Origin: Patescibacteria group bacterium
GTDB lineage: Bacteria > Patescibacteriota > Patescibacteriia > Magasanikbacterales > GWA2-37-8
Assembly (NCBI GenBank): GCA_028688375.1
Contig: JAQTYG010000001.1
Location: 183,420-247,419 of the forward strand
DNA: 64,000 nucleotides
Direction: 5' to 3'
Made by a program: the position numbers and the translations under genes. The notes under the pieces were generated by a model, which searched no databases, was not told where the DNA came from, and saw only the letters and a list, made by a program, of their open reading frames with translations. Within the stretch, counting starts at the first letter, position 1; every line of letters starts with the position of its first letter. Of the stretch, positions 39,336 through 64,000 are shown in pieces.

Positions 39336-40427
39336 TTATTTTCCAGATTTGGTTCGATTATCTTGCTTACACAACATTTGGCAATTCTCGGCAACAGTTT
39401 TACCACCCTCGTGCCACGGCTTTATATGGTCGGCTTCCATTTCTTCTATTTCAAAACGCTTCTTGCATTTTTTACAAATTCCTTTTTGCCTCTCATACGC
39501 TTCGCGCTTCATTTTGTCCGTAAAAGCACGAATCGAAAGAAATTTTTCTTGTCCCGTTAAAACATACGGGTAAATACCGGATTTTTTTGTAACATCTTCA
39601 TCTTGCATTAACTCTTTGATCTCGGCTTCAAGTTTACCGGCGTTCAATTTCCTATCTTTGAATTGATTATACAGTTCACCCCATTGCACGCCACTCATTT
39701 CTCGGCGATAATTTGTAAAAATTTTACGCACCCACGCAATCACGTCTTGAAAATACTGCCACAATGCTTCCGCATCCTTTTTATTTTGATGTTTGGCCAT
39801 GTAATCTTCTATCTTGCCGTCGTTAATCCACGAAAGTGCTGTTTCTAAATACTCCTGGCGAATTGGCGAGCCGTTAACTAATTGCCCGCCGTCGTTCGCT
39901 AACAAATATGCCGCGCAATTTGATTTGCTGAATTTAAGTTTGGCGTCAGAGAGCCATGGCCCGGTATATACCGCGTTGCGTATTTCTTGGTCAGTCAATT
40001 TTTCACCGGCAATATTAATAATTCTAAACCAGTCCAGTCGTTCTTTGTCTGTACCCTCGCAGAAATATATCATCAGTTCATAATCCAAAATCTGTTTTTG
40101 TTCTTCGTTGGTCAAGTTGTGAAAAAAACGATCATTCAGCGAAAAATCGCCATTAATATATTGCCCGATACTAATGGTGCGCTGTTGGCCGTCCAAAACT
40201 TCGAAATTTCCTTGGTCGGTCTTGACCCAGTACATCACATTAAGCGGAAAGCTATTTTTAATCGTTTCAAGCACGGCATCCCGCTGTTTGCCGGTATAAA
40301 CAAATTCGCGCTGATATTTGGGGCGGATATCCAGCTTACCGCCATACGCGACCACGCCTTCTTCGGCGCTGTCTTTGTAACCAACGACCACTTTACGCAC
40401 CGAAATTTTATGTAATTCAATTTTCAT
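39336..40427 (-). CDS. DUF262 (ParB/GmrSD N-terminal-like) - HNH endonuclease fusion protein; candidate restriction/defense nuclease
   Basis: VLDGQQRT (DGQQR signature of DUF262); C-terminal CKKCKKRFEIEEMEADHIKPWHEGGKTVAENCQMLCKQDNRTK HNH motif. Confidence 0.7.
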   Translation of the reverse strand: MKIELHKISVRKVVVGYKDSAEEGVVAYGGKLDIRPKYQREFVYTGKQRDAVLETIKNSFPLNVMYWVKTDQGNFEVLDGQQRTISIGQYINGDFSLNDRFFHNLTNEEQKQILDYELMIYFCEGTDKERLDWFRIINIAGEKLTDQEIRNAVYTGPWLSDAKLKFSKSNCAAYLLANDGGQLVNGSPIRQEYLETALSWINDGKIEDYMAKHQNKKDAEALWQYFQDVIAWVRKIFTNYRREMSGVQWGELYNQFKDRKLNAGKLEAEIKELMQDEDVTKKSGIYPYVLTGQEKFLSIRAFTDKMKREAYERQKGICKKCKKRFEIEEMEADHIKPWHEGGKTVAENCQMLCKQDNRTKSGK

Positions 40428-40428
40428 A

Positions 40429-41382
40429 TTATTTTTTTACTTTCTTATTTTTAACTAAAATTCTAAAATATGTAAATTTCCCATTTATTGACAGGTCTTT
40501 ATCATCATCGCCCTTACGAAACTTCACAATTTCAAACTGGTCCGGATTATATTTATCAATAAAAGTTATCGGCACACCAATAACGCCGTTATAATCATAG
40601 GGAATATCCGTATATTTGTCTACGTTGATTGCATCATAATTATCATAATGTGGATATTCCTCGGGGTTGTATTTTTTATATAATGTTATAAATTCCTTAT
40701 GCTTTTCAACCTCAAGGCTTGTGAACCAACACGAAGTTGAAACTCGCGCGATTTTCTTACCGTTCTCATCAATATGGTGAAACAATTCCCAATCGTCTGG
40801 CACCATAAAGAACATACCGACGTTAAAATTGGTGTAACCTGTTCGAATTTTGTCTTCTTTGAATAACTTAAAAATTTCTTTATAAGTTATCGCATTGGTA
40901 TTGCCGATAATCAAAAACCTCTTATCGTACTCCATCAGCTGCGCCATATACTCACGAAATAGTGAAAATGGCGGGTTTGTTACTATGATGTCAGCTTGTT
41001 TGAGAAGGTCAATACATTCCTTGCTTCGGAAATCGCCGTCGCTTATCATTTCGGTCATAAATTCATCCGGGTCGGGCATGCGATTACCATTTTTATCCCC
41101 AGCGTATTCCAATTTATAAGGTTTTTTATTGGTAAATAAAGTTGCGCCTTTGAAATGGGTGGCAATCAATTTCTTCAATCCTAAATGTTCAAAATTTCTA
41201 CTGAAATATTTAACAAAGTTACTTTCTCTCGGGTCATCGCAATTACAAAATACCACCTTTCCTCGAAACTGATCTTTATAATGCTTGATTTCATTTTCAA
41301 TATCGGCAAGCTGGGTATAAAACTCGTCTTTCTTTTCTTTACTTGCCTTATGCAAACTTTTATTTGATGATTTAGTTACCAT
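40429..41382 (-). CDS. N6-adenine DNA methyltransferase of the M.EcoRI family
   Basis: KDEFYTQLADIENEIKHYKDQFRGKVVFCNCDDPRESNFVKYF and IIVTNPPFSLFREY (NPPF catalytic motif) closely parallel M.EcoRI-family methylases; 317 aa; 1 nt gap to the downstream gene and 2 nt to the upstream gene. Confidence 0.7.
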   Translation of the reverse strand: MVTKSSNKSLHKASKEKKDEFYTQLADIENEIKHYKDQFRGKVVFCNCDDPRESNFVKYFSRNFEHLGLKKLIATHFKGATLFTNKKPYKLEYAGDKNGNRMPDPDEFMTEMISDGDFRSKECIDLLKQADIIVTNPPFSLFREYMAQLMEYDKRFLIIGNTNAITYKEIFKLFKEDKIRTGYTNFNVGMFFMVPDDWELFHHIDENGKKIARVSTSCWFTSLEVEKHKEFITLYKKYNPEEYPHYDNYDAINVDKYTDIPYDYNGVIGVPITFIDKYNPDQFEIVKFRKGDDDKDLSINGKFTYFRILVKNKKVKK

Positions 41383-41384
41383 AA

Positions 41385-42134
41385 TTATCTTCTTGTTATC
41401 AAGTCATACGCCAAGCTGGCGAGTGATATATAATGAATTGCTAAATTTTTATCCAAATCTTGAGCGGGAGTATGCGCTTTTTCATTCCGCAAAAATTGGA
41501 TGGACATATGTAAAAATTTTACTCCCTCAAAAAAATCTTTTTCCGCGTCATTTTTCGGTTTCCGCCCAAAAATTATTTCTTGGTTCGATTCCGCAAACGC
41601 CTCGTGCGCTTTTTCTTTGCCGGTAATATCTCTGAGCTTTTGACGAACGATTTTATACGCTTCTTCTACGGCGTTAAAATAATGCCCACTATTCAGAAAT
41701 TTTTGAACATGGTCAAAAACTTCTTTTTGCAAAATTATATTGATATTACCGTTCTTAAAGGTGGCTTGGGATATATTTTCAACTTTCACTTTTACCCCAA
41801 GAAGTTTTTCGCCAATGTTTTTAGCGGCGGTCATTCTGTCGGCTGGAAAATCATCTCGTTTCAAATTATCCAATAAAATCTGATTTTCAATATATTCAAT
41901 GAGTTTCAAAATACTTTTTCCAACGATTTTATCGTCTGCGTTCGTCCATAGGCCACGGAGACGATTTGCTTTTGAACCGCTGGCATAATTGTACCTTTGA
42001 TTGTAAATATCAATGCCGATGTCATCTCTAAAAAATTCACCCATTGTTCGGTCGGAAAAATTCAAAACATAACCACTGCCCATCTGGAGTAGTTTTTCAA
42101 GTGTCTGTTTTTCGAGTGTAGTCAGTTCTGCCAT
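41385..42134 (-). CDS. HEPN domain protein (TIGR02391/Swt1-like, Rx4-6H motif); Abi-like RNase candidate
   Basis: C-terminal FLRNEKAHTP provides the HEPN R-x4-H motif; first gene of the three-gene operon; sigma70-like promoter (TTGCGA-16/17-TAGAAT) immediately upstream at about 42140..42175. Confidence 0.55.
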   Translation of the reverse strand: MAELTTLEKQTLEKLLQMGSGYVLNFSDRTMGEFFRDDIGIDIYNQRYNYASGSKANRLRGLWTNADDKIVGKSILKLIEYIENQILLDNLKRDDFPADRMTAAKNIGEKLLGVKVKVENISQATFKNGNINIILQKEVFDHVQKFLNSGHYFNAVEEAYKIVRQKLRDITGKEKAHEAFAESNQEIIFGRKPKNDAEKDFFEGVKFLHMSIQFLRNEKAHTPAQDLDKNLAIHYISLASLAYDLITRR

Positions 42135-42139
42135 AATCT

Positions 42140-42480
42140 TATTCTATTCTATACTTATTAGAAAGATTCGCAATATATTTCTGGATTCCCGCCAGAGTTT
42201 ATCCTCGCGAAAGCGGGGGCGGGAATGACAGGGCTTCGCCGCGACCTCACCCCAGCCCTGCCTACCGGCAGGCAGGCCTCTCCTTATCAAGGAGAGGGGC
42301 GCCGGAGGGATTCCTCCACTACGGTCGGAATGACAGGACTTCCCCTCGCCCCCTCTTTATATAAGAGGGGGAAAGATCCTTCGCTTCGCTCAGGATGACA
42401 AGTGGCGGGAATGACAGGGTGACGAGAAGATCCTTCTCTCCGCTCAGGGTGACACCGCAAATTGCGGTGTCACTTTCTCT
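42140..42480. repeat. Repeat-dense intergenic region: at least five REP-like elements (families A, B, D plus the CTCTCCTTATCAAGGAGAGG hairpin and the GTGACACCGC-AAATT-GCGGTGTCAC hairpin)
   Basis: Family A at 42180..42232, D at 42257..42277, B-type at 42371..42400 and 42424..42454, perfect 10 bp hairpin at 42451..42473. Confidence 0.6.
42257..42277. repeat. GC-rich palindromic repeat family D (CCTGCCTACCGGCAGGCAGGC), right flank of the defense island
   Basis: 20/21 identical to 37297..37317. Confidence 0.55.
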
Positions 42481-43762
42481 CCCACTCCCCCGTCTGCCTG
42501 ACTAAAAGTTCAGACGCGCGGAGCGGTTCGGCCATTAATTCTTTGACGATTTTTTCCATCCGTACACCCTGCGAGCCTTTGATTAAAACTACATCGCCTT
42601 CTTTGATGGCGTCTTGTAAAAATTTCCCGGCGCTGGCACTGTCGGCAAAAGTCACCACGCGGTGTTCTTCCATCCCAGCCTCGCGCGCCGCTTGGGCCGT
42701 TTGTTTGGACGCCTCCCCCACCGTCACCAAGACATCAACCCCCAATTCCGCCACGCGCCGGCCGATATCACGATGGGCGCTTTCCGTTTCCAAACCCAGC
42801 TCCAGCATATCGCCGAGCACGGCGTAACGTTCGGCGTCGGCCTTGATGTCAATATTTTTAAGCGTCTTCAGCGCCGAGATGGTCGGTTCGGGCGAAGAAT
42901 TATAGCTGTCATCAATCAGCATGGTTTTTTTAATGCCCGGAATCAAACACATATGCCCGGCCAATGGTTTCAAATCGCGCAACGCGCCGGCCGCTTCCAC
43001 AAAATTCACGCCGAAAATATGGCCGATGGCCAGACCGGCCAAAGCCGCCGGAATCAAATGTTCGGCCATGGCGCCGGGTAAAAATACCGGCACGATGTTG
43101 CCCCGAAAATTAACCTTGAAATTCAAACCGGTCGGCCAGTTGGTCTCCGGGTCGGGAATAATATTGACATCAGTCGCCTGAAAATCCGCACCGTCTTTAA
43201 AACCGAAAGTGACCACCTCGGCTTTAGTTTTGGCGTTTTGCATCACCAGGTCATTGTCATAATTCAGCACGGCAAAACCTTCTTCGGTCAGATGAGAAAC
43301 AATGACACGCTTCTCCTGAATAATTTTTTTGAGGGTTTTAAAAAATTCTATATGCACCGGCGCGATGTAGGTCAACACGCCGACTTTACACGGCGCGGTC
43401 TCCACCAAATATTGAATGTCGCCCGGCTTATCCGAGCCCATTTCCAACACTAAAATTTCCGGATAATTTTCCGTTTTCCCGCCAATTAATTTTAACGCCC
43501 GGCCAAAAACTTTCAACCAACCGAAAATCGACCGGCCCGGAGTTTTATCAACACCGATAACGGTCAAGGGCAAGCCGATTTCGTTATTATAATTTTTAAC
43601 ATTGGCGCGAACGTTGAAACGCGTCCGCAGCACCGCCACCGCCGCTTCTTTGGTGGAAGTTTTGCCGATGGAACCGGTGATGCCGACAACATCGGGGCGA
43701 TATTTTTTTAAAATCGCCTTTGCTAATAATTTTAGGATGAGTTGGAGAAGGGATTTTAACAT
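42470..43762 (-). CDS. murF: UDP-N-acetylmuramoyl-tripeptide--D-alanyl-D-alanine ligase
   Basis: DVVGITGSIGKTSTKE P-loop, Mur ligase middle/C-terminal conservation; 430 aa. Confidence 0.8.
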   Translation of the reverse strand: MLKSLLQLILKLLAKAILKKYRPDVVGITGSIGKTSTKEAAVAVLRTRFNVRANVKNYNNEIGLPLTVIGVDKTPGRSIFGWLKVFGRALKLIGGKTENYPEILVLEMGSDKPGDIQYLVETAPCKVGVLTYIAPVHIEFFKTLKKIIQEKRVIVSHLTEEGFAVLNYDNDLVMQNAKTKAEVVTFGFKDGADFQATDVNIIPDPETNWPTGLNFKVNFRGNIVPVFLPGAMAEHLIPAALAGLAIGHIFGVNFVEAAGALRDLKPLAGHMCLIPGIKKTMLIDDSYNSSPEPTISALKTLKNIDIKADAERYAVLGDMLELGLETESAHRDIGRRVAELGVDVLVTVGEASKQTAQAAREAGMEEHRVVTFADSASAGKFLQDAIKEGDVVLIKGSQGVRMEKIVKELMAEPLRASELLVRQTGEWERK

Positions 43763-43768
43763 AAATTA

Positions 43769-45502
43769 TTATTTATCCTTTTGGATATTGTAATATTTCA
43801 AAGCGAAATCGGCCACGTCTTTGAATACCACCGCGGCGGTGGATTCCGCCCATTGGCGTTCCGGTTTTTCAAACTTTACCACCATGACAAATTTTATATC
43901 ACTGCCGGTCGGGGCGTAACCGCAAAAAGTATGGTTGGTTTCTTCGGTGTAACCGCCCGGTCCGGGAATTTGCGCCGTGCCGGTTTTGCCGGCGACATAA
44001 TATCCGCCCATTTTCACCGTGGCCCGATAAGTTTTTTCCACCACCGAAGTAAGCATGCCGGTAATCAATTTGGAAGCGCGCGGAGAAATAGCTTGCGCCA
44101 CCACGGTCGGGTCTGTTTTTTCCACTTTGCCGTTGGAGTACCTAATTTCTTTAATCAAATATGGTTTAAGCACCTGCCCGCCGTTGGCTAGGGCCGAATA
44201 GGCTACCGCCAATTGCAACGGGGTCACGGTTATGCCTTGCCCGAACGATGCTTGGGCGGTGGAAAGAACGGACTTTTTTTCCAAAGAGGAAATGTTGCCC
44301 GGCATTTCCGTATCCAACGGAACGCCCGTTTGCTGGCCAAAGCCGAATTTTTCAATATACGATTTCATGGTCTCCTGCGGCATTTTCTCCGACACCCAAA
44401 TCATACCCGTATTGATGGAATTTTCCAAGACCTCGGTCATGGTGACGCGCGGACCGTAACATTTGCCCAGCGCGTTGTGAATGGTGTATTTGCCGAACTG
44501 GCGCTCGCACGGGTCGGAAAAAGTGGTATTAGGCGAGACCAGCCCCTGGTCCAAAACCGACGACATCACAATCGGTTTAAAAACCGAACCCGGTTCATAA
44601 GGCGTAAAAATCGCCGTGTTATTAAACGCCTCCATATTTTTAACCTCGGAAAAATTATTCGGGTCATAACCGGGCAAGCTACACATGGCGATAATGGCGC
44701 CGGTGGCCGGGTCCATCATCACCAGCGAAGCGCTTTGGGCGTTGAACGCTTTCAGGCCTTCGGCCAGCCGACTACAAGCTTTGTACTGAATGGCGCGGTC
44801 AATGGTCAACACTAAATCAGCGCCGTTCTCCGCTTCCACCGAAGTCAAGCCGGCCAAAGAAATCCAACCGCCACCTTCCGCTCTTTCCCCGGAAAAAAAG
44901 CCCGTTTTGCCGGCCAAGGTTTTATTCCAATAACCTTCCACGCCGTATTTACCGGCCAAATTGTCTTCCTGGTCAAAAGCGCAAAATCCGAGCGCGCCGG
45001 CGCTACTGGCGCCTTCCGGATAATAACGATAAATTTCCGTGGTGGCATAAATGCCAGTCAATTTCGCCGCCTCCAGCTGGCTCCATTGTTCTTCCGGAAT
45101 TTTCCGCGCGATTGGTTCATAGGGGTCGTCGGCCTTGCTTAATTTAGCGCGCAACTCTTCCAGCGCTTCGTCGGGTAAAGCGAGCACGGTTTTAATTTTT
45201 TGCGCCGTCGCGTCCACTGCCTCTTTTTTTATTTCTTTAGGCACGGCGTAAATTTTGTAATAGGCGCGATTAATCGCCGCCGGATAAGTGTCGCCGTTGC
45301 GCGAGTCGGAAAAATAAATTTGGCCTCGGGCCGGATGAATTTTTTGATAAATCTCGTGCGTGTCCAAAGCCATGGTGGCGTAATAATCATGTTGCAAAAT
45401 CTGCAACCGGAACAGCTGGATCACCACCAACAAAATCGCCAAGCCGAAAATCAGCGAGAGGTAGCGAATTTCACGATATTGTTCGGCGTGATGAGTGAAC
45501 AT
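43769..45502 (-). CDS. ftsI: Penicillin-binding protein 2/FtsI-type peptidoglycan D,D-transpeptidase
   Basis: N-terminal TM anchor; EPGSVFKP (SxxK), SINT (SxN) and KTGTA (KTG) active-site triad motifs. Confidence 0.8.
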   Translation of the reverse strand: MFTHHAEQYREIRYLSLIFGLAILLVVIQLFRLQILQHDYYATMALDTHEIYQKIHPARGQIYFSDSRNGDTYPAAINRAYYKIYAVPKEIKKEAVDATAQKIKTVLALPDEALEELRAKLSKADDPYEPIARKIPEEQWSQLEAAKLTGIYATTEIYRYYPEGASSAGALGFCAFDQEDNLAGKYGVEGYWNKTLAGKTGFFSGERAEGGGWISLAGLTSVEAENGADLVLTIDRAIQYKACSRLAEGLKAFNAQSASLVMMDPATGAIIAMCSLPGYDPNNFSEVKNMEAFNNTAIFTPYEPGSVFKPIVMSSVLDQGLVSPNTTFSDPCERQFGKYTIHNALGKCYGPRVTMTEVLENSINTGMIWVSEKMPQETMKSYIEKFGFGQQTGVPLDTEMPGNISSLEKKSVLSTAQASFGQGITVTPLQLAVAYSALANGGQVLKPYLIKEIRYSNGKVEKTDPTVVAQAISPRASKLITGMLTSVVEKTYRATVKMGGYYVAGKTGTAQIPGPGGYTEETNHTFCGYAPTGSDIKFVMVVKFEKPERQWAESTAAVVFKDVADFALKYYNIQKDK

Positions 45503-56098: not shown

Positions 56099-57043
56099 TT
56101 ATGGCATGATGATTTCTACTTCCGGTTCAAGCCAGACCCTATACTTATCATACACTCTTCCTTTTATTTCTTCAACCAGAGCGACGACATCGGCTTGAGT
56201 AGCATTGCCGGCGTTGATAATAAAATTGCCGTGTTGCGGAGAAACCTGCGCGCCGCCGATTTTCACGCCTTTTAGGCCGGCTTGTTCCACCAACCAACCG
56301 GCCGGAATCATGCCTCGTTCGCGATAAATCTCCGGTAAGTTGCCGGGCAAAGCGCCCGGCCAATCGCCGGTTTTGATATTTTTAAAAAAACTGCCGGCCG
56401 AAGGCACCGTCGGCAATTTCTGCGACCGACCGAGTAAAATCTCCTGCATTTTTTTAACCACCGACGCTTGGTCGGATGGGATAAGTTTGAAGGTCGCGCG
56501 CAAAACCACTCCCCCATCGCGCTTGAAAATACTATCGCGATAACCGAAGGCGCACTCGGCCGAGGTGAGCGCCGTTGTTTCGCCGTTACGCCACGCTTCA
56601 ACCTGTTTAATATTTTGGGCCATATCCGAACCGTGCGCGCCAGCGTTGCCACGAACCGCTCCGCCGACCGTACCCGGGATGCCGGTCGCCCATTCCAATC
56701 CGGACAAACCGCGCGCCGCGGCTTCGTTGACCGCCGTGGATAACAGCGCGCCAGCTTCAATAATAATTTCGTCTTTGTCCGTCCGACATTTGGCGCAGTC
56801 AATTTTAATCACCACGCCACTAAACCCTTCATCCGGCGCCAGCACGTTTGACCCGCCACCGAGAATAAAAAAATCCTCACCCGCGCCGGATAGGAAATTT
56901 AATAAAGCGGGCAGTTTATCCGCCTCGCTGACTGTCACCACATATTTGGCCGGTCCGCCGATTTTAAAAGTGGTGTGCCGGGATAACAACACGTTAGTCT
57001 TGGTTTTTCCGTATTTTTTCAGCTCGGGATAGAGCAGATCCAT
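56099..57043 (-). CDS. murB: UDP-N-acetylenolpyruvoylglucosamine reductase
   Basis: LSRHTTFKIGGPAKYVV FAD-binding N-terminus and GGSN motif; 314 aa. Confidence 0.8.
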   Translation of the reverse strand: MDLLYPELKKYGKTKTNVLLSRHTTFKIGGPAKYVVTVSEADKLPALLNFLSGAGEDFFILGGGSNVLAPDEGFSGVVIKIDCAKCRTDKDEIIIEAGALLSTAVNEAAARGLSGLEWATGIPGTVGGAVRGNAGAHGSDMAQNIKQVEAWRNGETTALTSAECAFGYRDSIFKRDGGVVLRATFKLIPSDQASVVKKMQEILLGRSQKLPTVPSAGSFFKNIKTGDWPGALPGNLPEIYRERGMIPAGWLVEQAGLKGVKIGGAQVSPQHGNFIINAGNATQADVVALVEEIKGRVYDKYRVWLEPEVEIIMP

Positions 57044-57045
57044 AC

Positions 57046-58743
57046 TTGCTTTTTTCCTTATTTCCAGGTATTATTACCCCATTATATGGGAAAAATATGG
57101 TCTTGGCAAATGAAGTAAAAACAACGCTAAAAAAGAAACTCGGCCGGAAGCGGCTTTTTTATGTCTGCCGAGACGCGGAGCGCGCCGAAGCCGGACTTTT
57201 GCTTGGCCTGGCGAACTTTTTTATCGTGACCAACGACGGCCCCTATAGCCGCCAGCTGGCAAAGAAATACCGGAATATTTTGATTGTCCGAGGAAAGAAA
57301 ATTTTAGGCACGCATGAAATTCTGGCTAATTCCGCGATTAAGAAAAAAATTCGCCGAGGTGATTTTATTTTACTCTTTAAGCAGATGGAAAAAATTGAAA
57401 AAATCTGCGCCGAGCGCGGCTGGGTTTTGCTGAACCCGCCGACGGCGCTGGCCACGCGAGTGGAAGAAAAAATCTCGCAAGTGAAGTGGCTGGGCGCGTT
57501 AAAAAAATATTTGCCGTTGATTAAAATTGATATTTTAAAAAATATTTCCTGGGGCGGAAAAAAATTCATTTTACAATTTAATCGCGCTCACACCGGCGGT
57601 GGCACCATGTTGATTGACACGGCCAAAAAACTGAACGATTTAAAAAAGAAATTTCCGGCGCGCGAGGCGCGACTGGCCAAATTCGTGGCGGGGCCGAGTT
57701 TTACGGCCAACTGCGTTGTGTCGGGCAAAAAGGTTTTGCTTGGCAATATCAGCTACCAAATCACCGGCTTACGGCCGTTTACTGACAATCCCTTCGCCAC
57801 TATCGGCAATGACTGGGCTTTGCCGAAGAAAATTTTGAATAAAGAACAGCTGGGCGCGATTGAAACTATCGCCCGGGCCGTGGGCGCGAAATTAGCGCGT
57901 GATGGTTGGCGCGGACTGTATGGCATTGACGTTTCCATAGACGAAAAAACCGGGCGCGTCTATTTGATTGAAATCAACGCCCGACAACCGGCTTCCACCA
58001 GTTGGGAATCAATCTTACAGAATGAACACCGGATAATGGGTGGATTGACCGTGTTCGAAGCGCACTTATTAGCTTTACTGAAATGCGCCAGCGGACAAAA
58101 AATTATTCCGATTAGCAACGGCGCGCAAATTATTCAACGGGTAACCAAGGATACGCCACGATTGCCGGAGCCGAAACTTTTTAAACCGATTGAATTCCAT
58201 TACATCCGCTACGAAAATACAGAAATTGATAACGATCTTTTGCGGTTGCAGACCGGGTGCGGGGTAATGGCCAAGCATAGTCAGTTAAATCCGCACGGGG
58301 AAGAACTTTCCGTTTTTGTCCGTTTTACCCGAAGCCGACGGGCTTCTAACTGCCCGCGGGCCGGCGCGATCATTACACGGAACGGGCGCATCCTTTTGCT
58401 GAAACGCCACCGTTACGGGTATAATTACTGGGTGGTGCCGGGCGGAACACCCGAAAAAAACGAGAATATGGCCACGACCGCCAGACGAGAAATCCTGGAA
58501 GAAACCGGTTTGCGCGCGATACTTGATACCCAACAACCGCCGCTTCGTATTAACGGTACCCGCGATGAAACTTACTATTTTACGAAATCATTCAACGGGC
58601 GGGCGCGGTTGGGCGGACCGGAAAGAAAAAGTAGTTGTCCGGAAAACCACTACACTTTGAAGTGGGTGCCGATTAAAGAACTTAAAAAAATAAATTTGTT
58701 GCCGGTAGAATTAAAGGAAAAATTGATAAAAATATTGTGTTAA
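57046..58743 (+). CDS. Fusion protein: N-terminal ATP-grasp ligase domain plus C-terminal NUDIX hydrolase domain
   Basis: ATP-grasp-like core ending RVYLIEINARQ; Nudix box GGTPEKNENMATTARREILEETGL (Gx5Ex7REUxEExGU). Start could alternatively be the ATG at 57097 (MVLANEV), which has a GGGAAA RBS. Confidence 0.55.
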   Translation: MLFSLFPGIITPLYGKNMVLANEVKTTLKKKLGRKRLFYVCRDAERAEAGLLLGLANFFIVTNDGPYSRQLAKKYRNILIVRGKKILGTHEILANSAIKKKIRRGDFILLFKQMEKIEKICAERGWVLLNPPTALATRVEEKISQVKWLGALKKYLPLIKIDILKNISWGGKKFILQFNRAHTGGGTMLIDTAKKLNDLKKKFPAREARLAKFVAGPSFTANCVVSGKKVLLGNISYQITGLRPFTDNPFATIGNDWALPKKILNKEQLGAIETIARAVGAKLARDGWRGLYGIDVSIDEKTGRVYLIEINARQPASTSWESILQNEHRIMGGLTVFEAHLLALLKCASGQKIIPISNGAQIIQRVTKDTPRLPEPKLFKPIEFHYIRYENTEIDNDLLRLQTGCGVMAKHSQLNPHGEELSVFVRFTRSRRASNCPRAGAIITRNGRILLLKRHRYGYNYWVVPGGTPEKNENMATTARREILEETGLRAILDTQQPPLRINGTRDETYYFTKSFNGRARLGGPERKSSCPENHYTLKWVPIKELKKINLLPVELKEKLIKILC

Positions 58744-58752
58744 TTTTAATAA

Positions 58753-58780
58753 CTGGATTCCCGCCTTCGCGGGAATGACA
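58753..58780. repeat. REP-like hairpin family A: CTGGATTCCCGCCTTCGCGGGAATGACA, overlapping the start codon of the next gene
   Basis: The ATGACA of the repeat supplies the ATG at 58775. Confidence 0.65.
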
Positions 58781-59602
58781 ATGATTATGTTATCCGCGCG
58801 AGCTGAAAAAGTTATCCGCGATTATTTCAACCTTCCTTTTGAGGGTTTGACTGGCGTGCGCTGTCCTTATTTTAACAACGCCCGGCGCAATCGGCGCGGA
58901 CAACTGCGCGGGCTGATCGGTAAAGGCACACCGGAAGAAATCGCGGAGGAGGCGCGAATCATTTCCACTCAATATCGCCATAATATTTTTGATAAAGATG
59001 GCCACTGCTGTGTGCACGCGACGCATAATGACGAAGAAAAAATTGAAGACGTGAGAAAATTTTTGATTGATAATGATCTGGGAATTGATTGTTCCGGATT
59101 TGTCAGCCATGTCCTGATTGAACATTACAAAGAAACCAGGGGCGTGGATATCGCCCGCCGGTTTCACTTTTGGCCGATAAAAAATTTCTGGCGCTGGCTG
59201 GTGGCGCGTTTGCGTCCGGTGGAAAACATGTCGGTCCGCGTAATGGCTAAGGACGCTAACACTAACAAGATCGCCGATGGGCGAAGCGGTTTTGATTGGT
59301 CGCGCTTAGAATCGGCGGATTTAGTGATCATGATGGAAACCGGACCGAACAAAAAAAGAAACCACGTGTTGCTGATTGAAGACAACGAGGGCTCGGTGAT
59401 TAGATACACGCACGCCCGCGCCTGGTCGGCTGAAGGCAAATACGGACATGGGGTGGCGCGCGGAGAGATCCGTCTAACCAAACCGGGCGGTAATTTGTTG
59501 GAACAAGCCTGGGAAGAACTGGGCCGAGCCGGAGAAGATAATGAAACATTTTTAGAAGCAACAGGGGCTAAACTGTTGGAAGTAAGACGGATAAGAATAT
59601 AG
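58775..59602 (+). CDS. Hypothetical protein with NlpC/P60-like papain-fold cysteine peptidase motif
   Basis: GIDCSGFVSHVL resembles the NlpC/P60 catalytic Cys block; a downstream His (NHVLLI) is present. Weak. Confidence 0.35.
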   Translation: MTMIMLSARAEKVIRDYFNLPFEGLTGVRCPYFNNARRNRRGQLRGLIGKGTPEEIAEEARIISTQYRHNIFDKDGHCCVHATHNDEEKIEDVRKFLIDNDLGIDCSGFVSHVLIEHYKETRGVDIARRFHFWPIKNFWRWLVARLRPVENMSVRVMAKDANTNKIADGRSGFDWSRLESADLVIMMETGPNKKRNHVLLIEDNEGSVIRYTHARAWSAEGKYGHGVARGEIRLTKPGGNLLEQAWEELGRAGEDNETFLEATGAKLLEVRRIRI

Positions 59603-59676: not shown

Positions 59677-60810
59677 ATGATGTCTTGCCAGCCATTTTCA
59701 CCGGAATTATTGGAGCAGGCATTTTTGTATCTTTTGTGCGCGACCATTGGCGCGTTTATTTTAGCGCCGTTACTAACCAAATTTTTATACAAATTTAAAA
59801 TTACCCGCCGAAGCGAATATGACTTCACTTTGCAGGGCGCGGATCGAGCGGGAAAAGTCGGCACGCCGATCATGGGTGGTTTATTAGTCATTGTGGTGGT
59901 CACGATCATTACTTTACTTTTTAATTGGGAACGCAGTTATACCTATGTGCCGATCGGTGTGATGGGTCTGTCGGCCTTGCTCGGCGCGGCTGATGATTTG
60001 ATGAACATTTTCGGGGCAAAAAGACGCTCTCGTTCGTTCGCTAATACTTGGCTTCTGGTAAGAATACACCGACATTGGTACGCGCGAATTTTTTATTTTT
60101 GCAGTCTGCCCTGGGTGGCTTTTCGCCAGCTGGCCAGCGCGCTCGGTTCACATCCGGGGCGCGGAATTCAGGTGCACGAAAAACTGCTGATGCAATTTAT
60201 CGCCGGCGGAGTGACGGCTTGGTGGATCTATTTTAAACTGGGAGAAAATTGGCGCTCGCTTTGGGTGCCGTTTGACGGCGTGATTAATCTCGGCTGGTGG
60301 ATTATTCCTTTGGTGATTTTACTGGTGATGTTCACGGCCAACGCGGTCAACATCGCCGACGGCTTGGACGGTCTGGCCGGCGGAGCGTTGATTATGACCT
60401 TTCTCGGCCTGATGATTATCAGTTGGATTGAGGGCCGGGTGGCGTTTACTTTGCTCAATGGTACGGTGGTGGGGGCGCTGATTGCTTATACTTACTTTAA
60501 TATCAAACCGGCGCGATTCCAAATGGGCGATGTCGGCACACTGGGATTAGGCGCGCTTTTTGCCATCAACGCCATTGCCGTTAATAAAACCATTCTGATT
60601 CCCCTACTCGGCTTTATTTTTTACGTGGAAGCGATTTCTGTGCTGATCCAAATTTTCTGCCGCCGAATGTTGGGCAAAAGATTTTTCAAAATGGCCCCCA
60701 TTCATCATCACTTTGAGTTTCGCGGTTGGAGTGAGGAAAAAATTGTGATGCGCTTTTGGCTGATTCACTCTTTCTTTGTGATTGTGGCCGTGTGGCTGGC
60801 GTTACATTAA
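59677..60810 (+). CDS. mraY: Phospho-N-acetylmuramoyl-pentapeptide transferase
   Basis: NAVNIADGLDGLAGG and QMGDVGTLGLGA motifs of the MraY/WecA family; 10 TM; 377 aa. Confidence 0.8.
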   Translation: MMSCQPFSPELLEQAFLYLLCATIGAFILAPLLTKFLYKFKITRRSEYDFTLQGADRAGKVGTPIMGGLLVIVVVTIITLLFNWERSYTYVPIGVMGLSALLGAADDLMNIFGAKRRSRSFANTWLLVRIHRHWYARIFYFCSLPWVAFRQLASALGSHPGRGIQVHEKLLMQFIAGGVTAWWIYFKLGENWRSLWVPFDGVINLGWWIIPLVILLVMFTANAVNIADGLDGLAGGALIMTFLGLMIISWIEGRVAFTLLNGTVVGALIAYTYFNIKPARFQMGDVGTLGLGALFAINAIAVNKTILIPLLGFIFYVEAISVLIQIFCRRMLGKRFFKMAPIHHHFEFRGWSEEKIVMRFWLIHSFFVIVAVWLALH

Positions 60811-60901: not shown

Positions 60902-61591
60902 ATGGACAGATACTTAACCTGGGACGAAAAAACAATCACGGATTTTTCCGATGCCAATGTCAGCGCCCTGTATGAGCGCGGTTTTGTTTTTACGCGCCTG
61001 GGCAAGGGGCAGATGGCGCAGACTAGAAGCGTGCGTGTCGACTTGAACAAATTTGAATTAACCAGCGAAAATCGCCGAGTGTTGAAAAAAACAGAAAACG
61101 TGCGGTTAAATGTTGTGTCGCTCCCCCATCCGAATTATGACTGGCGGATACATAAAATGGGCTTTGATTTTTATACGACAAAATTCGGGCCCGGAACTTT
61201 TTCCGCCAATAAGATCAAGGAACTTTTGATCAGCGAAAATAGTAATTTTAATTTGCTTTTTAAGTACTCTCTCGATGCCCCGAAGGGATCCCTCGACTCC
61301 GCTCGGGATGACAAAAATGAGCCGGTCGGCTACTGTATTTGCTATACCAATTCCGATTGGCTACATTACGCTTATCCGTTTTATGATTTGAATGTCGACG
61401 CGCCGAATTTAGGTATCAGCATGATGACCAAGGCGATTGTCTGGGCCAAGGAAAACGGAAAAAAATATGTTTGTCTCGGTAGCGCGAAAGATGCCGCAGC
61501 GATTTACAAGTTTCAATTTTCCGGCGTGGAATGGTTTGACGGTAAAGAATGGAAAACGGATGTTGAAGAACTAAAAAAAATATTAAAATAA
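60902..61591 (+). CDS. GNAT-fold aminoacyl-tRNA-dependent transferase-like protein (FemAB/DUF2156-like), carrying an in-frame REP insertion
   Basis: C-terminal AAAIYKFQFSGVEW resembles the Fem-family G..YRFK.GFG ending; start chosen at 60902 rather than 60782 to avoid overlap with mraY and the hairpin. Weak. Confidence 0.4.
   Translation: MDRYLTWDEKTITDFSDANVSALYERGFVFTRLGKGQMAQTRSVRVDLNKFELTSENRRVLKKTENVRLNVVSLPHPNYDWRIHKMGFDFYTTKFGPGTFSANKIKELLISENSNFNLLFKYSLDAPKGSLDSARDDKNEPVGYCICYTNSDWLHYAYPFYDLNVDAPNLGISMMTKAIVWAKENGKKYVCLGSAKDAAAIYKFQFSGVEWFDGKEWKTDVEELKKILK
61280..61313. repeat. REP-like element family B inserted in frame within a CDS (CCGAAGGGATCCCTCGACTCCGCTCGGGATGACA, encoding PKGSLDSARDD)
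   Basis: The 5' 15 nt and 3' GGGATGACA match the intergenic copies at 45535 and 42371/42424. Confidence 0.6.
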
Positions 61592-61614: not shown

Positions 61615-62421
61615 ATGGAAAAATTTAACTCATCCAAACACGGGCATCTTACCAAAGATTTGCCGCTTAGCTTTCTTTCTCTGCCGGTCTATCTTGATTT
61701 TTGCGCGCATATTCTTGAAAGAAACGGCGAGCCAATAATAGTCCGGCAGGACGCTTTATATGAGCACGAATTTCCTTCAATCTTTTTGCCCAAGAACCCT
61801 CAAAATTGGCAACGGGCTTCAATGGCAATGATAACAAAGCATGATATTGAGAAGATTAAAGCACACAGCATCGAAGTTGGCATTGAAACTCCGACGGAAA
61901 CCGAGTTTTTTTATAACACAAATGATTTTGTGAATCCGCGCGGGAAATTAAAGGAGCGCATTAATCAATTTGAAAATAATTACGATTTTGTTTTAAAAAA
62001 TACTTACAGTAAAGATGCGCTCGCAACGTTTTTTAAAACGTGGGAAGGGCAAAAAGAATGCGCCAACGATTGGTTTGAAAAAGAAAGCGCCGACTTTTTC
62101 TTTTATTGTTTGGAAAATCTTGAAAAATATGGCATTGCCCAAGTGTATGTAGAAGTGGAAAACAAATTAGTCGGTTTTGCGTGGGGAGTAAAACATTTAG
62201 GAAATAATTGGGCGGGGTTGCACATGAAGGTTGACTATAACTACAAAGGGCTGAGCCGTTTTATTCATCACGAGAGAGCAAAAATATTTTCCGGGTATGA
62301 TATGTTTACTTTGGGCACGGGTTGCGAGGACCCCGGACTGATTCAGTTCAAAAAAGAACTGAAACCGGTTAAAGAGCAGGAATATTTTTACGTATTCACT
62401 CGCGGAATAATCACTTCATGA
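61615..62421 (+). CDS. GNAT-fold aminoacyl-tRNA-dependent transferase-like protein (DUF2156 / MprF C-terminal-like)
   Basis: 268 aa; the GLIQFKKELKPV ending and central VGFAWGV block resemble DUF2156/Fem family members. Weak. Confidence 0.4.
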   Translation: MEKFNSSKHGHLTKDLPLSFLSLPVYLDFCAHILERNGEPIIVRQDALYEHEFPSIFLPKNPQNWQRASMAMITKHDIEKIKAHSIEVGIETPTETEFFYNTNDFVNPRGKLKERINQFENNYDFVLKNTYSKDALATFFKTWEGQKECANDWFEKESADFFFYCLENLEKYGIAQVYVEVENKLVGFAWGVKHLGNNWAGLHMKVDYNYKGLSRFIHHERAKIFSGYDMFTLGTGCEDPGLIQFKKELKPVKEQEYFYVFTRGIITS

Positions 62422-62422
62422 T

Positions 62423-63283
62423 ATGAAAAATAATTTGGAGCAAAGACTTCTCTCCGATAAAATTGAACAGGAGAAACACATGGAGGAGCTGATTAGAAAT
62501 TTGGACGTTCTGTCTTCAATAGACAGTTTTTCGACACATGAAGACGAGATTAGAGCATATTTAAAAGAAATTTTGGAAAAATTCGAGATGAAATGCGAGG
62601 TGGACGAAAAAGGCAATCTCTGGGGAGAATCGGAAAAAGGAAAACAAAAAAATATCTTAGTGTCGGCACATATGGATAAGGTCGGAGCGGGAAATCCGGT
62701 AGCACATATTGGAAACCGACTAAAGGGACGGCTGGATAACGCGCTCGGTTTATCAATTATCATTGAATTATTAAAAAACGGCTTAAAACCGTCGGTACTT
62801 TTTACCGTTGAAGAAGAATCAGATTACGAAGTTGTAAGAGAGGGTCTGCCCGCGTTTGAAGAGCGAGAGCTCCCGAATGGCCTTTATCATGCCGGCGCAC
62901 GATTCGCGGCGGAACAACTGGTTAAACAACTTGAAAAACCAAGCCTGGCAATAGTGGTGGATGTTACAAGAATGGGAAAGGTGGGCGACGGGCCGATTAT
63001 TTATACTTCTTCCGGCTATAAAAAGCCGGGAACACAATCTTATTTCTCTCCAAAAATTCTAAAAAAGATAGCGAAAATTATAAACCCACTTGGTATCGGC
63101 GTCAGCTATCAGGAGGGAAATCCCAACGATGCCACAGAGATGGCTAGTGTTCCAGGAATGGAGATTCTTGCCGTTGAGATTCCTGTTATAAATAACCATA
63201 CCGCGAATGAAGAAGCCGACCTTGGAGACGTTGAGAAAACAATAAAAATCTTAACTAGTATTATAGAAAATTTTGAATTTTAA
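62423..63283 (+). CDS. M42/M20-like metallopeptidase family protein (short form)
   Basis: SAHMDKVG resembles the M42 (FrvX/glutamyl aminopeptidase) HMDEIG metal-binding block; 286 aa is shorter than canonical. Confidence 0.4.
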   Translation: MKNNLEQRLLSDKIEQEKHMEELIRNLDVLSSIDSFSTHEDEIRAYLKEILEKFEMKCEVDEKGNLWGESEKGKQKNILVSAHMDKVGAGNPVAHIGNRLKGRLDNALGLSIIIELLKNGLKPSVLFTVEEESDYEVVREGLPAFEERELPNGLYHAGARFAAEQLVKQLEKPSLAIVVDVTRMGKVGDGPIIYTSSGYKKPGTQSYFSPKILKKIAKIINPLGIGVSYQEGNPNDATEMASVPGMEILAVEIPVINNHTANEEADLGDVEKTIKILTSIIENFEF

Positions 63284-63324: not shown

Positions 63325-64000
63325 ATGAAGCACATCCACTTTATTGGCATTTGCGGGGTCGGCATGAGCGCGCTGGCCATTCTTTGGAAAAAGAAAGGGT
63401 TCAAAGTAACCGGCTCGGACGCGGGATTTTATCCGCCTGTTTCCACTCATCTGGAGGAAAATGGGATTGATTTTTATGCCGGCTGGCATCCGGAAAAAAT
63501 GTCTACGCCGGATTTGGTGGTGGTCGGCAATGTGGCCGGTTCGGTCAATCCGGAGTGGCTCTATGTGCAGGAACATAATATCCCGTATGTTTCCTATCCG
63601 GAATTAATCGCGCAAAACTTAGTGCGTAAAAATTCTATAGTCTGCGCCGGCACTTGGGGTAAAACTTCCACTACCGCGCTCCTCGCCTACATTTTAAAAA
63701 CAGCGAATTTTAAGCCGGCCTATATGTTTGGGGGCTTGTCCCTGAGCCTGCCATATGCCGCCGATGACGAGGGTGGCGACTGGAGTGTGTTGGAAGGAGA
63801 TGAATACAAAACAGGTAAAGACCATCCGGAAGCGAAATTTTTTTCTTACAAACCGACTCATTTGCTCCTGACCGGCCTGGCTTGGGATCACTTTGATATG
63901 TATCCGACCGAGGAATCTTACTACGAAGCTTTTACCAAGCTTTTAGGCGGCATGCCGACAGACGGACTGGCGGTGGTGTGCGCGGACGATGAGAATATCA
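63325..64000 (+). CDS. murC: UDP-N-acetylmuramate--L-alanine ligase, N-terminal part (runs off the window)
   Basis: MKHIHFIGICGVGMSALAIL matches the MurC N-terminus (HFIGIGGxGMSGLA); GTWGKTSTTALLAYIL P-loop; not in the ORF track because there is no stop in the window. Confidence 0.75.
   Translation, partial: MKHIHFIGICGVGMSALAILWKKKGFKVTGSDAGFYPPVSTHLEENGIDFYAGWHPEKMSTPDLVVVGNVAGSVNPEWLYVQEHNIPYVSYPELIAQNLVRKNSIVCAGTWGKTSTTALLAYILKTANFKPAYMFGGLSLSLPYAADDEGGDWSVLEGDEYKTGKDHPEAKFFSYKPTHLLLTGLAWDHFDMYPTEESYYEAFTKLLGGMPTDGLAVVCADDENI

Follow-up and report, generated by a model that had tools for sequence, protein, structure and literature searches.

What would a protein that joins an ATP-grasp ligase to a Nudix hydrolase do among the genes of cell-wall precursor synthesis, and with which partner would it act? 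The question is raised by a gene in the window analyzed here, a stretch of 64,000 nucleotides from the genome of a member of the Magasanikbacteria (Table 1). There the gene is transcribed divergently from murB in a mur cluster that also contains mraY, transferase-like genes and a Mur ligase, as the earlier note on this DNA had described. Few pathways of bacteria have been charted as well as peptidoglycan precursor synthesis, which is a major target of antibiotics, and new cytoplasmic steps are rare. A recent one is that of MurD2/MurL (PMC8788868).

No paper was found in the literature on this ATP-grasp family, nor on ATP-grasp with Nudix or ATP-grasp with NlpC/P60 in a mur context. The domain architecture, which had been called non-standard, is indeed out of the ordinary, but public databases already list hundreds of Patescibacteria proteins that have it, under the label "NUDIX domain-containing protein." In the following, gene order was compared across 80 loci, fusions were counted in 150 representatives clustered at 50% identity, and residue conservation was scored in 118 representatives.

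Table 1. Features of the ATP-grasp–Nudix locus (window coordinates).
Feature	Position	Strand	Remarks
murB (UDP-N-acetylenolpyruvoylglucosamine reductase)	56099..57043	-	Pfam MurB_C, FAD_binding_4; divergent, 53 nt from fusion gene
ATP-grasp–Nudix fusion gene	57097..58743	+	548 aa, NCBI MDD2757986.1; start ATG 57097
Predicted ATP-grasp ligase domain	57097..58341	+	residues 1 to ~415; pre-ATP-grasp, central and C-terminal subdomains
Strand and glycine-rich loop FILQFNRAHTGGGT	57565..57606	+	residues 157-170; holds Q160
Catalytic motif E292-I-N294-A-R296 (ExNxR)	57970..57984	+	aligned to BC E288/N290/R292
Predicted Nudix hydrolase domain	58348..58743	+	residues ~418-548; MutT-like minimal fold
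Nudix box GTPEKNENMATTARREILEETGL	58444..58512	+	residues 450-472; exact fit to GX5EX7REUXEEXGU
Hairpin ATTCCCGC-CTTC-GCGGGAAT	58757..58776	+	read from sequence; overlaps the partner's likely ribosome-binding site
Partner, cytoplasmic NlpC/P60-fold cysteine peptidase	58787..59602	+	271 aa; MDD2757987.1 "hypothetical protein"; ORF open from 58775
mraY (phospho-MurNAc-pentapeptide translocase)	59677..60810	+	Pfam Glycos_transf_4; tblastn to E. coli MraY; seven hydrophobic segments
Ate/Bpt/Fem-like (ATE_C) aminoacyl-tRNA transferase-like gene	60902..61591	+	open from TTG 60782; likely start ATG 60902
LPG_synthase_C-like (MprF C-terminal-like) aminoacyl-tRNA transferase-like gene	61615..62421	+	Pfam PF09924, 28.8 bits
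MurC/Mpl-family ligase, N-terminal part	63325..64000	+	cut by window end; tblastn best to E. coli Mpl

The Fusion Gene and Its Product

The reading frame is uninterrupted on the plus strand from a TTG at 57046 to 58743 (565 codons), which agrees with the 565-aa protein first reported, but the likely product is the 548-aa protein that begins at ATG 57097. This start is favored because the homologs are 545–560 aa long, an independent Logan assembly has the gene called from ATG 57097, 53 nt off murB, and NCBI MDD2757986.1 is an exact match to the 548-aa product. The 17-codon extension upstream is probably not translated, and for the divergent murB a promoter-like site lies at 57109-57081. No transmembrane segments or signal peptides were found in the fusion protein, and the product is predicted to be one cytoplasmic bifunctional protein, a ligase and a pyrophosphohydrolase.

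Since unfused ATP-grasp versions of ~405 aa exist, one might suspect that two separate genes were joined by an error of sequencing or assembly, or by read-through that arose by chance, yet the probability of this is negligible. The frame is continuous and the NCBI record holds a single CDS, at least 53 independently assembled homologs share the same single-polypeptide architecture with end-to-end alignment (43–61% identity), and the two domains have co-evolved (Mantel r 0.62, p ∼0.001). AlphaFold2, in the structure prediction that the earlier note had recommended, gives a single compact, confident fold (pLDDT 93.9, pTM 0.89), and across the 80 loci compared no separate Nudix gene lies between ATP-grasp and partner where the two domains are unfused. 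A frameshift or other artefact was rejected as effectively refuted by the homologs, the model and the NCBI CDS. The fusion is thus real and conserved, and it is found only in the Magasanikbacteria, which are ultra-small bacteria, while the ATP-grasp family as a whole is confined to ∼312 species genomes.

The ATP-Grasp Ligase Domain

That an ATP-grasp and a Nudix domain share one protein was borne out by Pfam, where residues 171-314 match ATP-grasp_3 (PF02655-type) with 24.1 bits against a cut-off of 23.2. Apart from this marginal match, no specific Pfam or NCBIfam family was above cut-off for the ligase domain, NCBIfam PRK06524 "biotin carboxylase" matching with 48.9 bits, and a PDB sequence search with the fusion protein gave matches to the Nudix part only. 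The three-domain alpha/beta ATP-grasp fold is present, and its nucleotide site lies where the central and C-terminal domains meet. In the biotin carboxylase (BC)/PurK/L-amino-acid ligase (LAL) clade, the ExNxR motif provides Mg2+ ligands and an Arg that stabilizes the acyl-phosphate, and here its E and N are retained in 118 of 118 representatives and its R in 116. Residues were mapped by hhalign to AccC, PurK and DdlB of E. coli, each taken as a single sequence (probabilities 1.3%, 3.8%, and 69.8%), and these alignments served residue mapping only. By this low-probability mapping, D278, E292, and N294 (Mg ligands), R296 and K125 are kept in 116–118 of 118 representatives. Q160 aligns with the canonical ATP-binding Lys (BC K159/DdlB K144), the mappings being low-probability but concordant, and it is a Gln in 116/118. 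Gln in place of this Lys is atypical among active ATP-grasp enzymes.

The N-terminal part is therefore predicted, from its sequence and modeled fold, to be a carboxylate-amine ligase of the PurK/biotin-carboxylase/L-amino-acid-ligase clade. It can be likened to BL00235, BacD, RizA, PGM1, BesA, LdmS, and PylC, and to the PurK/PurT/biotin carboxylase core, but differs from L-amino-acid ligases, PurK and BC in that identity is only 9–15%, the strand Lys is replaced by Gln, and an NlpC/P60 partner is obligate.

The expectation of a D-Ala-D-Ala-type enzyme was not upheld: Ddl family models and the fold ranking lend it no support, fold and ExNxR are nearer PurK/BC, and Ddl identity was rejected. There is a precedent for an ATP-grasp ligase among mur genes in E. 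coli, where ddlB directly follows murC, and the enzyme might still be the dipeptide synthetase of this lineage, a non-orthologous Ddl replacement (or D-Ala-X ligase) that supplies MurF and has its place beside murB and murC, where ddl is often found. Canonical murC, murD, murE, murG, and ddl were not found within ±10 kb of 90 loci, nor in the 64-kb window, but this sampling covers ±10 kb around one locus and a canonical ddl may sit elsewhere. In groundwater CPR bacteria as a whole, nearly all peptidoglycan monomer-synthesis enzymes were found (PMC12114108), which also speaks against a replacement, as does the far greater number of MurF-containing Patescibacteria than of genomes with this family. 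With its ExNxR and overall fold nearer PurK/BC than Ddl, and the obligatory NlpC/P60 partner and the fusions to it left unexplained, a dipeptide synthetase is quite improbable.

The Nudix Domain

In the C-terminal part, Pfam NUDIX matches residues 437-548 with 59.4 bits (cut-off 21.1), the Nudix alpha/beta/alpha sandwich fold is present, the textbook Nudix box reported earlier fits the consensus exactly, and its RExxEE core is retained in 53/53 aligned fused proteins. This part is predicted to be a catalytically competent MutT-like Nudix pyrophosphohydrolase, resembling the minimal hydrolases BdRppH, MutT2, the Ap6A hydrolase Ndx1, NUDT15, and AtNUDX1, from which it differs in being fused to an ATP-grasp ligase and in reaching no NCBIfam equivalog cut-off, every match being far below. 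The nearest solved folds are NTP/ApnA/RNA pyrophosphohydrolases and not NDP-sugar hydrolases, which argues against action on a nucleotide-linked cell-wall precursor as first suggested.

Only 27/80 loci and 5/150 of the 50%-identity representatives carry the Nudix domain, and in a tree of the ATP-grasp family the clades lacking it nest among the fused clades, the domain apparently having been lost repeatedly. That a standalone Nudix makes up for the loss was considered and rejected, as no replacement is nearby; a NudE-like Nudix gene 3′ of the Mur ligase, found in 4/21 fused and 6/37 unfused loci, is of a different Nudix type from the fused domain. Because most members are without the Nudix and have no substitute nearby, a tight coupling of ligase and clean-up, as the earlier note proposed, cannot be the core function. 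We infer that the Nudix is an ancient but dispensable add-on, a nucleotide-hydrolyzing accessory.

These results weigh on a reading close to the original one. Asl of enterococci and lactococci is an ATP-grasp D-aspartate ligase that couples D-Asp to the epsilon-amine of Lys in UDP-MurNAc-pentapeptide. The ligase here could be an Asl-like branch or side-chain ligase on UDP-MurNAc-peptide, the Nudix would hydrolyze mis-made or surplus UDP-precursor (UDP-X to UMP and X-phosphate), and the NlpC/P60 enzyme would remove the added residue. The PF02655-type ATP-grasp is in keeping with this, as are the Nudix box, which implies an NDP-X type substrate such as UDP-MurNAc-peptides, and the other branch-forming candidates of the mur cluster, the ATE_C-like and LPG_synthase_C-like genes. 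Clean-up is not integral, however, in a family of which most members have neither Nudix nor nearby substitute, the nearest Nudix folds are of the wrong kind, and to hydrolyze the MraY substrate right beside mraY would work against the pathway if the enzyme were not highly selective, all of which makes this reading unlikely.

The Constant Partner Is an NlpC/P60 Peptidase

The key partner is the gene directly downstream, which the earlier note did not mention. Its product has a papain-like fold with a Cys at a helix N-terminus and His/His on beta-strands (candidate catalytic residues Cys106/His197/His213, numbered from 58775) and its own ∼100-aa N-terminal domain, and no transmembrane segments or signal peptides were found in it. 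The protein has no Pfam match and misses the PF00877 cut-off, and its membership in NlpC/P60 therefore rests on structure, although relatives give faint matches (P0243, E 0.003). A PDB sequence search matched nothing. A putative "ParB/Srx-like" C-terminal domain of the homolog P0244 was dropped as it had no Pfam support.

The gap between the two genes is 43 nt, with the hairpin inside, and the partner adjoins the ATP-grasp gene in 78 of the 80 loci. In 25/150 of the 50%-identity representatives it forms the C-terminal part of one polypeptide with the ATP-grasp, and at two loci (L024, L085) the pair is still together though the mur genes are elsewhere. A triple ATP-grasp–Nudix–NlpC/P60 fusion was sought and none was found, the long forms being due to low-complexity inserts. 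The constant companion of the ATP-grasp is the NlpC/P60 peptidase and not the Nudix, and adjacency together with the fusions shows that the ATP-grasp ligase and the downstream NlpC/P60 peptidase together make up the functional unit.

Gene Neighborhood and the Mur Ligase

With murB divergent in most of the 80 loci, the pair belongs to an operon-like same-strand run of ATP-grasp (with or without Nudix), NlpC/P60, mraY, the ATE_C-like gene and the Mur ligase, which occurs with both fused and unfused forms. In a rearranged locus (L089) that no longer contains murB and mraY, the fused pair still precedes the ATE_C-like gene and the Mur ligase. The ATE_C-like gene, which in most loci keeps its place after mraY and before the Mur ligase, scores 24 bits with Pfam ATE_C, just below the cut-off of 25, and E 2.9e-11 with NCBIfam arginyltransferase. 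It and the LPG_synthase_C-like gene are both of GNAT fold and on the strand of mraY; the latter was absent from the other 80 loci and among the loci compared occurs only in this genome.

The ligase gene that ends the window had been taken for murC. It does belong to the MurC/Mpl family, but of the two E. coli enzymes Mpl appears to be the nearer to it: by tblastn it is 36% identical to Mpl, the best among all E. coli Mur ligases, and Mpl is likewise the best match of the 64 ligase regions across the loci and the window. In BLASTP, 7/7 full-length orthologs are nearer Mpl (177–228 bits) than MurC (84–128). The name "Mpl" is not established, because the NCBIfam murC model slightly outscores mpl (257–261 versus 230–249 bits) and both cut-offs, 335 and 389, are missed, and the identity is putative.

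Neighbors that are clearly unrelated, RaiA, a sulfatase-like gene and transketolase, are also conserved in order in this lineage, and the mur synteny could therefore partly reflect descent and not function. A few genomes have the ATP-grasp/NlpC/P60 pair away from mur genes. The pair might have nothing to do with peptidoglycan, making and breaking an amide of some small metabolite or of a carrier protein, with a mur neighborhood that is inherited order. The product could be a glutathionylspermidine-like thiol/polyamine conjugate. A role outside peptidoglycan is distinctly unlikely. A conserved LysW-like 54-aa protein with a C-terminal DEGK is encoded a few kb downstream; its loading by the ligase was retained as a minor rival only.

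Proposed Role in Stem-Peptide Metabolism

The constant NlpC/P60 neighbor points to an undescribed step of cell-wall-peptide tailoring or salvage. The reading we tentatively favor, as possible though short of probable, is that ligase and amidase form a module for the tailoring or salvage of peptidoglycan stem peptides, the Nudix being a dispensable accessory. The pair would act in the cytoplasm, where the NlpC/P60 enzyme would cut a gamma-D-Glu-type or similar non-ribosomal amide in a free or precursor-bound stem peptide and the ATP-grasp enzyme would form an amide bond via an acyl-phosphate intermediate. The peptide so tailored, repaired or re-built would then be loaded onto UDP-MurNAc by the Mpl-like ligase, before MurF and MraY. 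The Nudix would most likely clear a nucleotide (di/tri)phosphate by-product or a dead-end nucleotide-linked species near the ligase. In architecture the module resembles glutathionylspermidine synthetase-amidase (GspSA) and trypanothione synthetase-amidase, by analogy only. GspSA has an N-terminal CHAP amidase and a C-terminal Gsp synthetase, the reverse of the order here, in which the peptidase follows the ligase in one chain or is a protein of its own. The ligase of this locus is like PurK/BC/LAL and not like Gsp synthetase, the partner is nearer true peptidoglycan NlpC/P60 peptidases, and the genes stand in a cell-wall precursor context with a Nudix sometimes added.

In the cytoplasmic recycling of peptidoglycan peptides by YkfC, MpaA, LdcA, and Mpl, an NlpC/P60 peptidase that has no signal peptide is likewise combined with a UDP-MurNAc:peptide ligase, to which the Mur ligase of this locus is putatively similar. 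To our knowledge, neither an ATP-grasp ligase nor a Nudix domain belongs to any such recycling pathway. YkfC cuts gamma-D-Glu-mDAP in tri- and tetrapeptides when these are free, and the tripeptide is attached again by Mpl (PMC9928106). The partner here differs from YkfC in being without SH3b domains and in its own N-terminal domain. A bolder form of the proposal, which we regard as very doubtful, is an off-line assembly of stem peptides, in which the pair would cut and re-ligate free, possibly host-derived muropeptides (e.g., to swap the diamino acid), the Mpl-like enzyme would be the main or only loader of peptide onto UDP-MurNAc, partly replacing MurC/MurD/MurE, and the fused and NudE-like Nudix enzymes would police nucleotide-linked intermediates.

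On the tailoring or salvage reading, the Nudix fusion is the less important part of the locus, an optional module. The proteins are small, soluble and confidently modeled, so that direct assay is possible. An ultra-small and probably host-dependent lineage keeps an ATP-grasp ligase, an NlpC/P60 peptidase and an Mpl-like ligase in its mur cluster, and these three genes, together with the ligase–peptidase fusions, lead to the testable proposal that such bacteria may tailor or salvage their stem peptides by a step that is as yet undescribed.

A conserved pair of ligase and NlpC/P60 peptidase

The ATP-grasp–Nudix gene of the window is followed by a gene for an NlpC/P60-fold cysteine peptidase without a Pfam match, which has about 420 homologs in the same lineages, every one annotated as hypothetical. 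Cys106 (at a helix N-terminus), His197 and His225 are invariant in this peptidase and His213 is found in 54 of 57 sequences, and neither a TM segment nor a signal peptide was found in it. In 78 of 80 loci sampled from other genomes the gene directly 3′ of ATP-grasp is that of the peptidase, both exceptions being at a contig edge, and the two remain paired even in relocated loci. Moreover, in 25 of 150 representatives the peptidase is an extra C-terminal domain of the ATP-grasp protein, as in P0243 (678 aa), whose C-terminus gives a faint match to PF00877. Such Rosetta-stone fusions indicate that the two enzymes act jointly, and they are likely to be a functional pair. Another protein, P0244 (540 aa), carries in the slot used by Nudix or NlpC/P60 a different C-terminal domain of ~130 aa, which has an LLDGLHRL motif and no Pfam match. 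The 43-nt spacer between the two genes of the window contains a perfect 8-bp hairpin, ATTCCCGC-CTTC-GCGGGAAT, overlapping the likely ribosome-binding site of the peptidase gene, and this might couple or throttle its translation.

Boundaries and authenticity of the fusion gene

The reading frame described in the earlier note was recovered in an ORF scan as 565 codons from a TTG. Translation almost certainly begins at the ATG at 57097, for a product of 548 aa, because homologs are 545–560 aa in length, the gene is called from this ATG, 53 nt from murB, in an independent Logan assembly, and the NCBI protein MDD2757986.1, encoded on a 281-kb contig, matches the 548-aa product exactly. The neighbors of this entry are MDD2757985.1 (MurB), MDD2757987.1 (hypothetical) and MDD2757988.1 (MraY), and the 90% cluster containing it has a 55-aa fragment as its representative. 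The domain assignment in that note, an N-terminal ATP-grasp and a Nudix domain, is borne out by Pfam, narrowly for ATP-grasp_3 (24.1 bits versus a cut-off of 23.2) and with 59.4 bits for NUDIX. The fusion is also genuine. More than 1000 homologs were found, and the ~90 best of them combine ATP-grasp and Nudix over their full length (43–61% identity); they come from Magasanikbacteria, Parcubacteria and other Patescibacteria and represent many independent assemblies. The two domains have correlated distance matrices (r 0.62, Mantel p ~0.001) and concordant nearest neighbors in 34 of 53 proteins, which argues for vertical co-inheritance. A frameshift origin is thus ruled out, the chance of any artefact is negligible given the same two-domain protein in so many independent assemblies, and this is with high confidence a single bifunctional gene.

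The ATP-grasp domain

The NCBIfam model PRK06524 ('biotin carboxylase') matches residues 97–320 with 48.9 bits. In a fold ranking the domain scores high against the biotin carboxylase (BC) of acetyl-CoA carboxylase (25.2), PurT (24.6), PylC (23.4), PurD (23.3), the L-amino-acid ligase BL00235 (23.2) and the peptide ligases 8ynd, PGM1, BesA and LdmS (21–23), with D-Ala-D-Ala ligases lower (about 16); Foldseek concurs, and at the sequence level the domain is 9–15% identical to these proteins. In low-probability profile alignments to the single sequences of E. coli AccC and DdlB, which are concordant, K125, D278 and E292/N294/R296 correspond to BC K116, E276 and E288/N290/R292, and all five are kept in 116–118 of 118 representatives. 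By the same low-probability mapping, the canonical strand ATP-binding Lys (BC K159, DdlB K144) is replaced in 116 of 118 by Gln160, an unusual feature that may alter nucleotide binding. In the window this Gln lies in an FILQ motif, and the Mg2+ ligands are retained.

The Nudix domain

Versions of ~405 aa that lack Nudix are common. Nudix is fused in 27 of 80 species-level loci (GTDB genomes), and in none of the 53 others is the unfused gene followed by a Nudix gene, the next gene beginning 0–135 nt on. Among the best 150 representatives at 50% identity, 120 are ATP-grasp alone, five have Nudix and 25 have another domain. A neighbor-joining tree built on the ATP-grasp domain nests unfused clades among fused ones, which suggests an old fusion followed by repeated loss. 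Hence the Nudix domain, although predicted to be catalytically intact, is optional. It resembles NTP/ApnA pyrophosphohydrolases and is here seen as an accessory that would clear away a by-product of nucleotide nature or a nucleotide-linked dead end. A refined form of the earlier proposal, in which such clean-up serves an Asl-like (D-aspartate ligase) branch ligase on UDP-MurNAc-pentapeptide, is unlikely. In 10 of 58 loci a second, distinct Nudix gene, NudE-like and encoding 189–190 aa, separates the Mpl-like ligase from a LysW-like gene, irrespective of Nudix on the ATP-grasp protein.

Gene neighborhood and peptidoglycan genes

In fused and unfused loci, genes for a sulfatase-like protein, RaiA and MurB on one strand adjoin ATP-grasp(±Nudix), NlpC/P60, mraY, an ATE_C-like transferase and a Mur ligase on the other; next come a LysW-like gene, in opposite orientation, and then a ThrC-like PALP gene. 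RaiA and transketolase, clearly unrelated, are likewise syntenic, so that descent alone could account for part of this order, and a minority of genomes have the pair next to rsmH/mraW or methyltransferases instead. A functional link to the mur genes is argued by the rearranged locus L089, where murB and mraY are gone and yet the ATE_C-like and Mur ligase genes still come after the fused ligase-peptidase, and by the co-directional run with short gaps (43 nt to the peptidase gene, 74 nt from there to mraY). The divergent murB–fusion gene region is only 53 nt, and the best sigma-70-like promoter match of the region (TTGCCA-17-TATAAT, 11/12), directed at murB, overlaps the initial codons of the fusion gene.

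The gene taken as murC in the earlier note does belong to the MurC/Mpl family; MurC is its less likely identity. Full-length orthologs score 177–228 bits against E. coli Mpl versus 84–128 against MurC (7/7, pairwise), and Mpl is the best tblastn match for 64 ligase regions, including the partial gene of the window, while NCBIfam gives murC 257–261 versus mpl 230–249 bits, both under cut-offs. Together these point to a deep member of the MurC/Mpl family with a tendency towards Mpl. In the window murF comes straight after ftsI (PBP2), with no intervening murE. No homologs of MurD, MurE, MurG or Ddl were found there or across 1.48 Mb of related loci, which covered ±10 kb around a single locus in each genome. 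That the ATP-grasp enzyme replaces Ddl and feeds MurF is improbable. The dcw genes are scattered as mini-clusters in this genome.

The LysW-like zinc-ribbon protein (53–54 aa, CPEC...CxxCG) has a C-terminal DEGK invariant in 55/55 copies, and in 51 of 58 loci its gene separates the Mpl-like ligase from the ThrC-like PLP enzyme. The protein may be of the amino-group-carrier type (NCBIfam lysW, 25.9 bits, under cut-off). A non-peptidoglycan metabolite or carrier-protein system, with this protein among the options, is a quite unlikely setting for the pair. In the window, two genes without counterparts in the other 80 loci are inserted between the ATE_C-like and Mur ligase genes, one for an LPG_synthase_C-like transferase, the other for an M20/M42-like peptidase whose weak best match is '[LysW]-lysine hydrolase'. 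Many TPA_asm MAGs with a Patescibacteria-type locus (L021, L023–L025, L028 and others) bear the title 'uncultured Gammaproteobacteria', and one of them that of 'Candidatus Udaeobacter'; these titles look wrong or like placeholders.

Elsewhere in the window, an island directly past murF (GmrSD_N+HNH endonuclease, EcoRI-type adenine methyltransferase with 413 bits, Hypoth_Ymh protein) breaks up the remaining dcw cluster, and a long run encodes nucleotide-sugar dehydratases/epimerases, RmlC/RmlD-like enzymes, a DegT aminotransferase, a split transketolase, a flippase, a Wzy_C ligase and glycosyltransferases.

Coordinates of features in the window and, where a locus is named, in related loci
Feature	Position	Remark
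Surface-polysaccharide synthesis genes	546-28511 (-)	
Large ORF, 717 aa	31016-33169	no Pfam family
Large ORF, 842 aa	33582-36110	no Pfam family; sub-threshold Ig-like match
Defence or restriction island	39336-42134	
ftsI, murF	42470-45502	
Fusion gene ORF	57046..58743 (+)	from TTG
Promoter match	57081-57109 (-)	
Strand and glycine-rich loop with FILQ	57565-57606	
Hairpin	58757-58776	
NlpC/P60 gene, MDD2757987.1, 271 aa	58787..59602	directly downstream of fusion gene
Inserted transferase and peptidase	61615-63283	
Mur ligase, partial	63325..64000	cut by window end
NudE-like Nudix gene	L089:6872-7441; L005:16740-17312	and 8 further loci
LysW-like gene	L002:13523-13687 (-); L089:7463-7627 (-); L090:14659-14823 (-)	examples; past window end

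Proposed function

NlpC/P60 enzymes usually target gamma-D-Glu-diamino-acid or related non-ribosomal bonds. Within the cytoplasm, the signal-less NlpC/P60 enzyme YkfC cleaves tri- and tetrapeptide in free form, and Mpl re-attaches tripeptide to UDP-MurNAc (PMC9928106). Most economically, the pair would be a cytoplasmic ligase/amidase module working on peptidoglycan stem peptides, similar in architecture to glutathionylspermidine synthetase/amidase, and we modestly favor a peptidoglycan peptide as its substrate. An ATP-grasp enzyme of the amino-acid/peptide-ligase clade would re-form or extend the stem peptide, which would then pass to the Mpl-like ligase, MurF and MraY; this specific salvage and re-ligation scheme is tentative and rather doubtful.

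Each component falls in a known superfamily, and there are precedents both for pairs of ligase and amidase and for ATP-grasp enzymes related to peptidoglycan. Database labels of the family are 'NUDIX domain-containing protein', 'ATP-grasp domain-containing protein' and 'hypothetical', and no paper on the family, on fusions of ATP-grasp with Nudix or on mur-cluster pairs of ATP-grasp with NlpC/P60 came up in a literature search. The main point is a conserved ligase-peptidase pair beside an Mpl-like ligase in a probably host-dependent lineage, to which the Nudix fusion is secondary.
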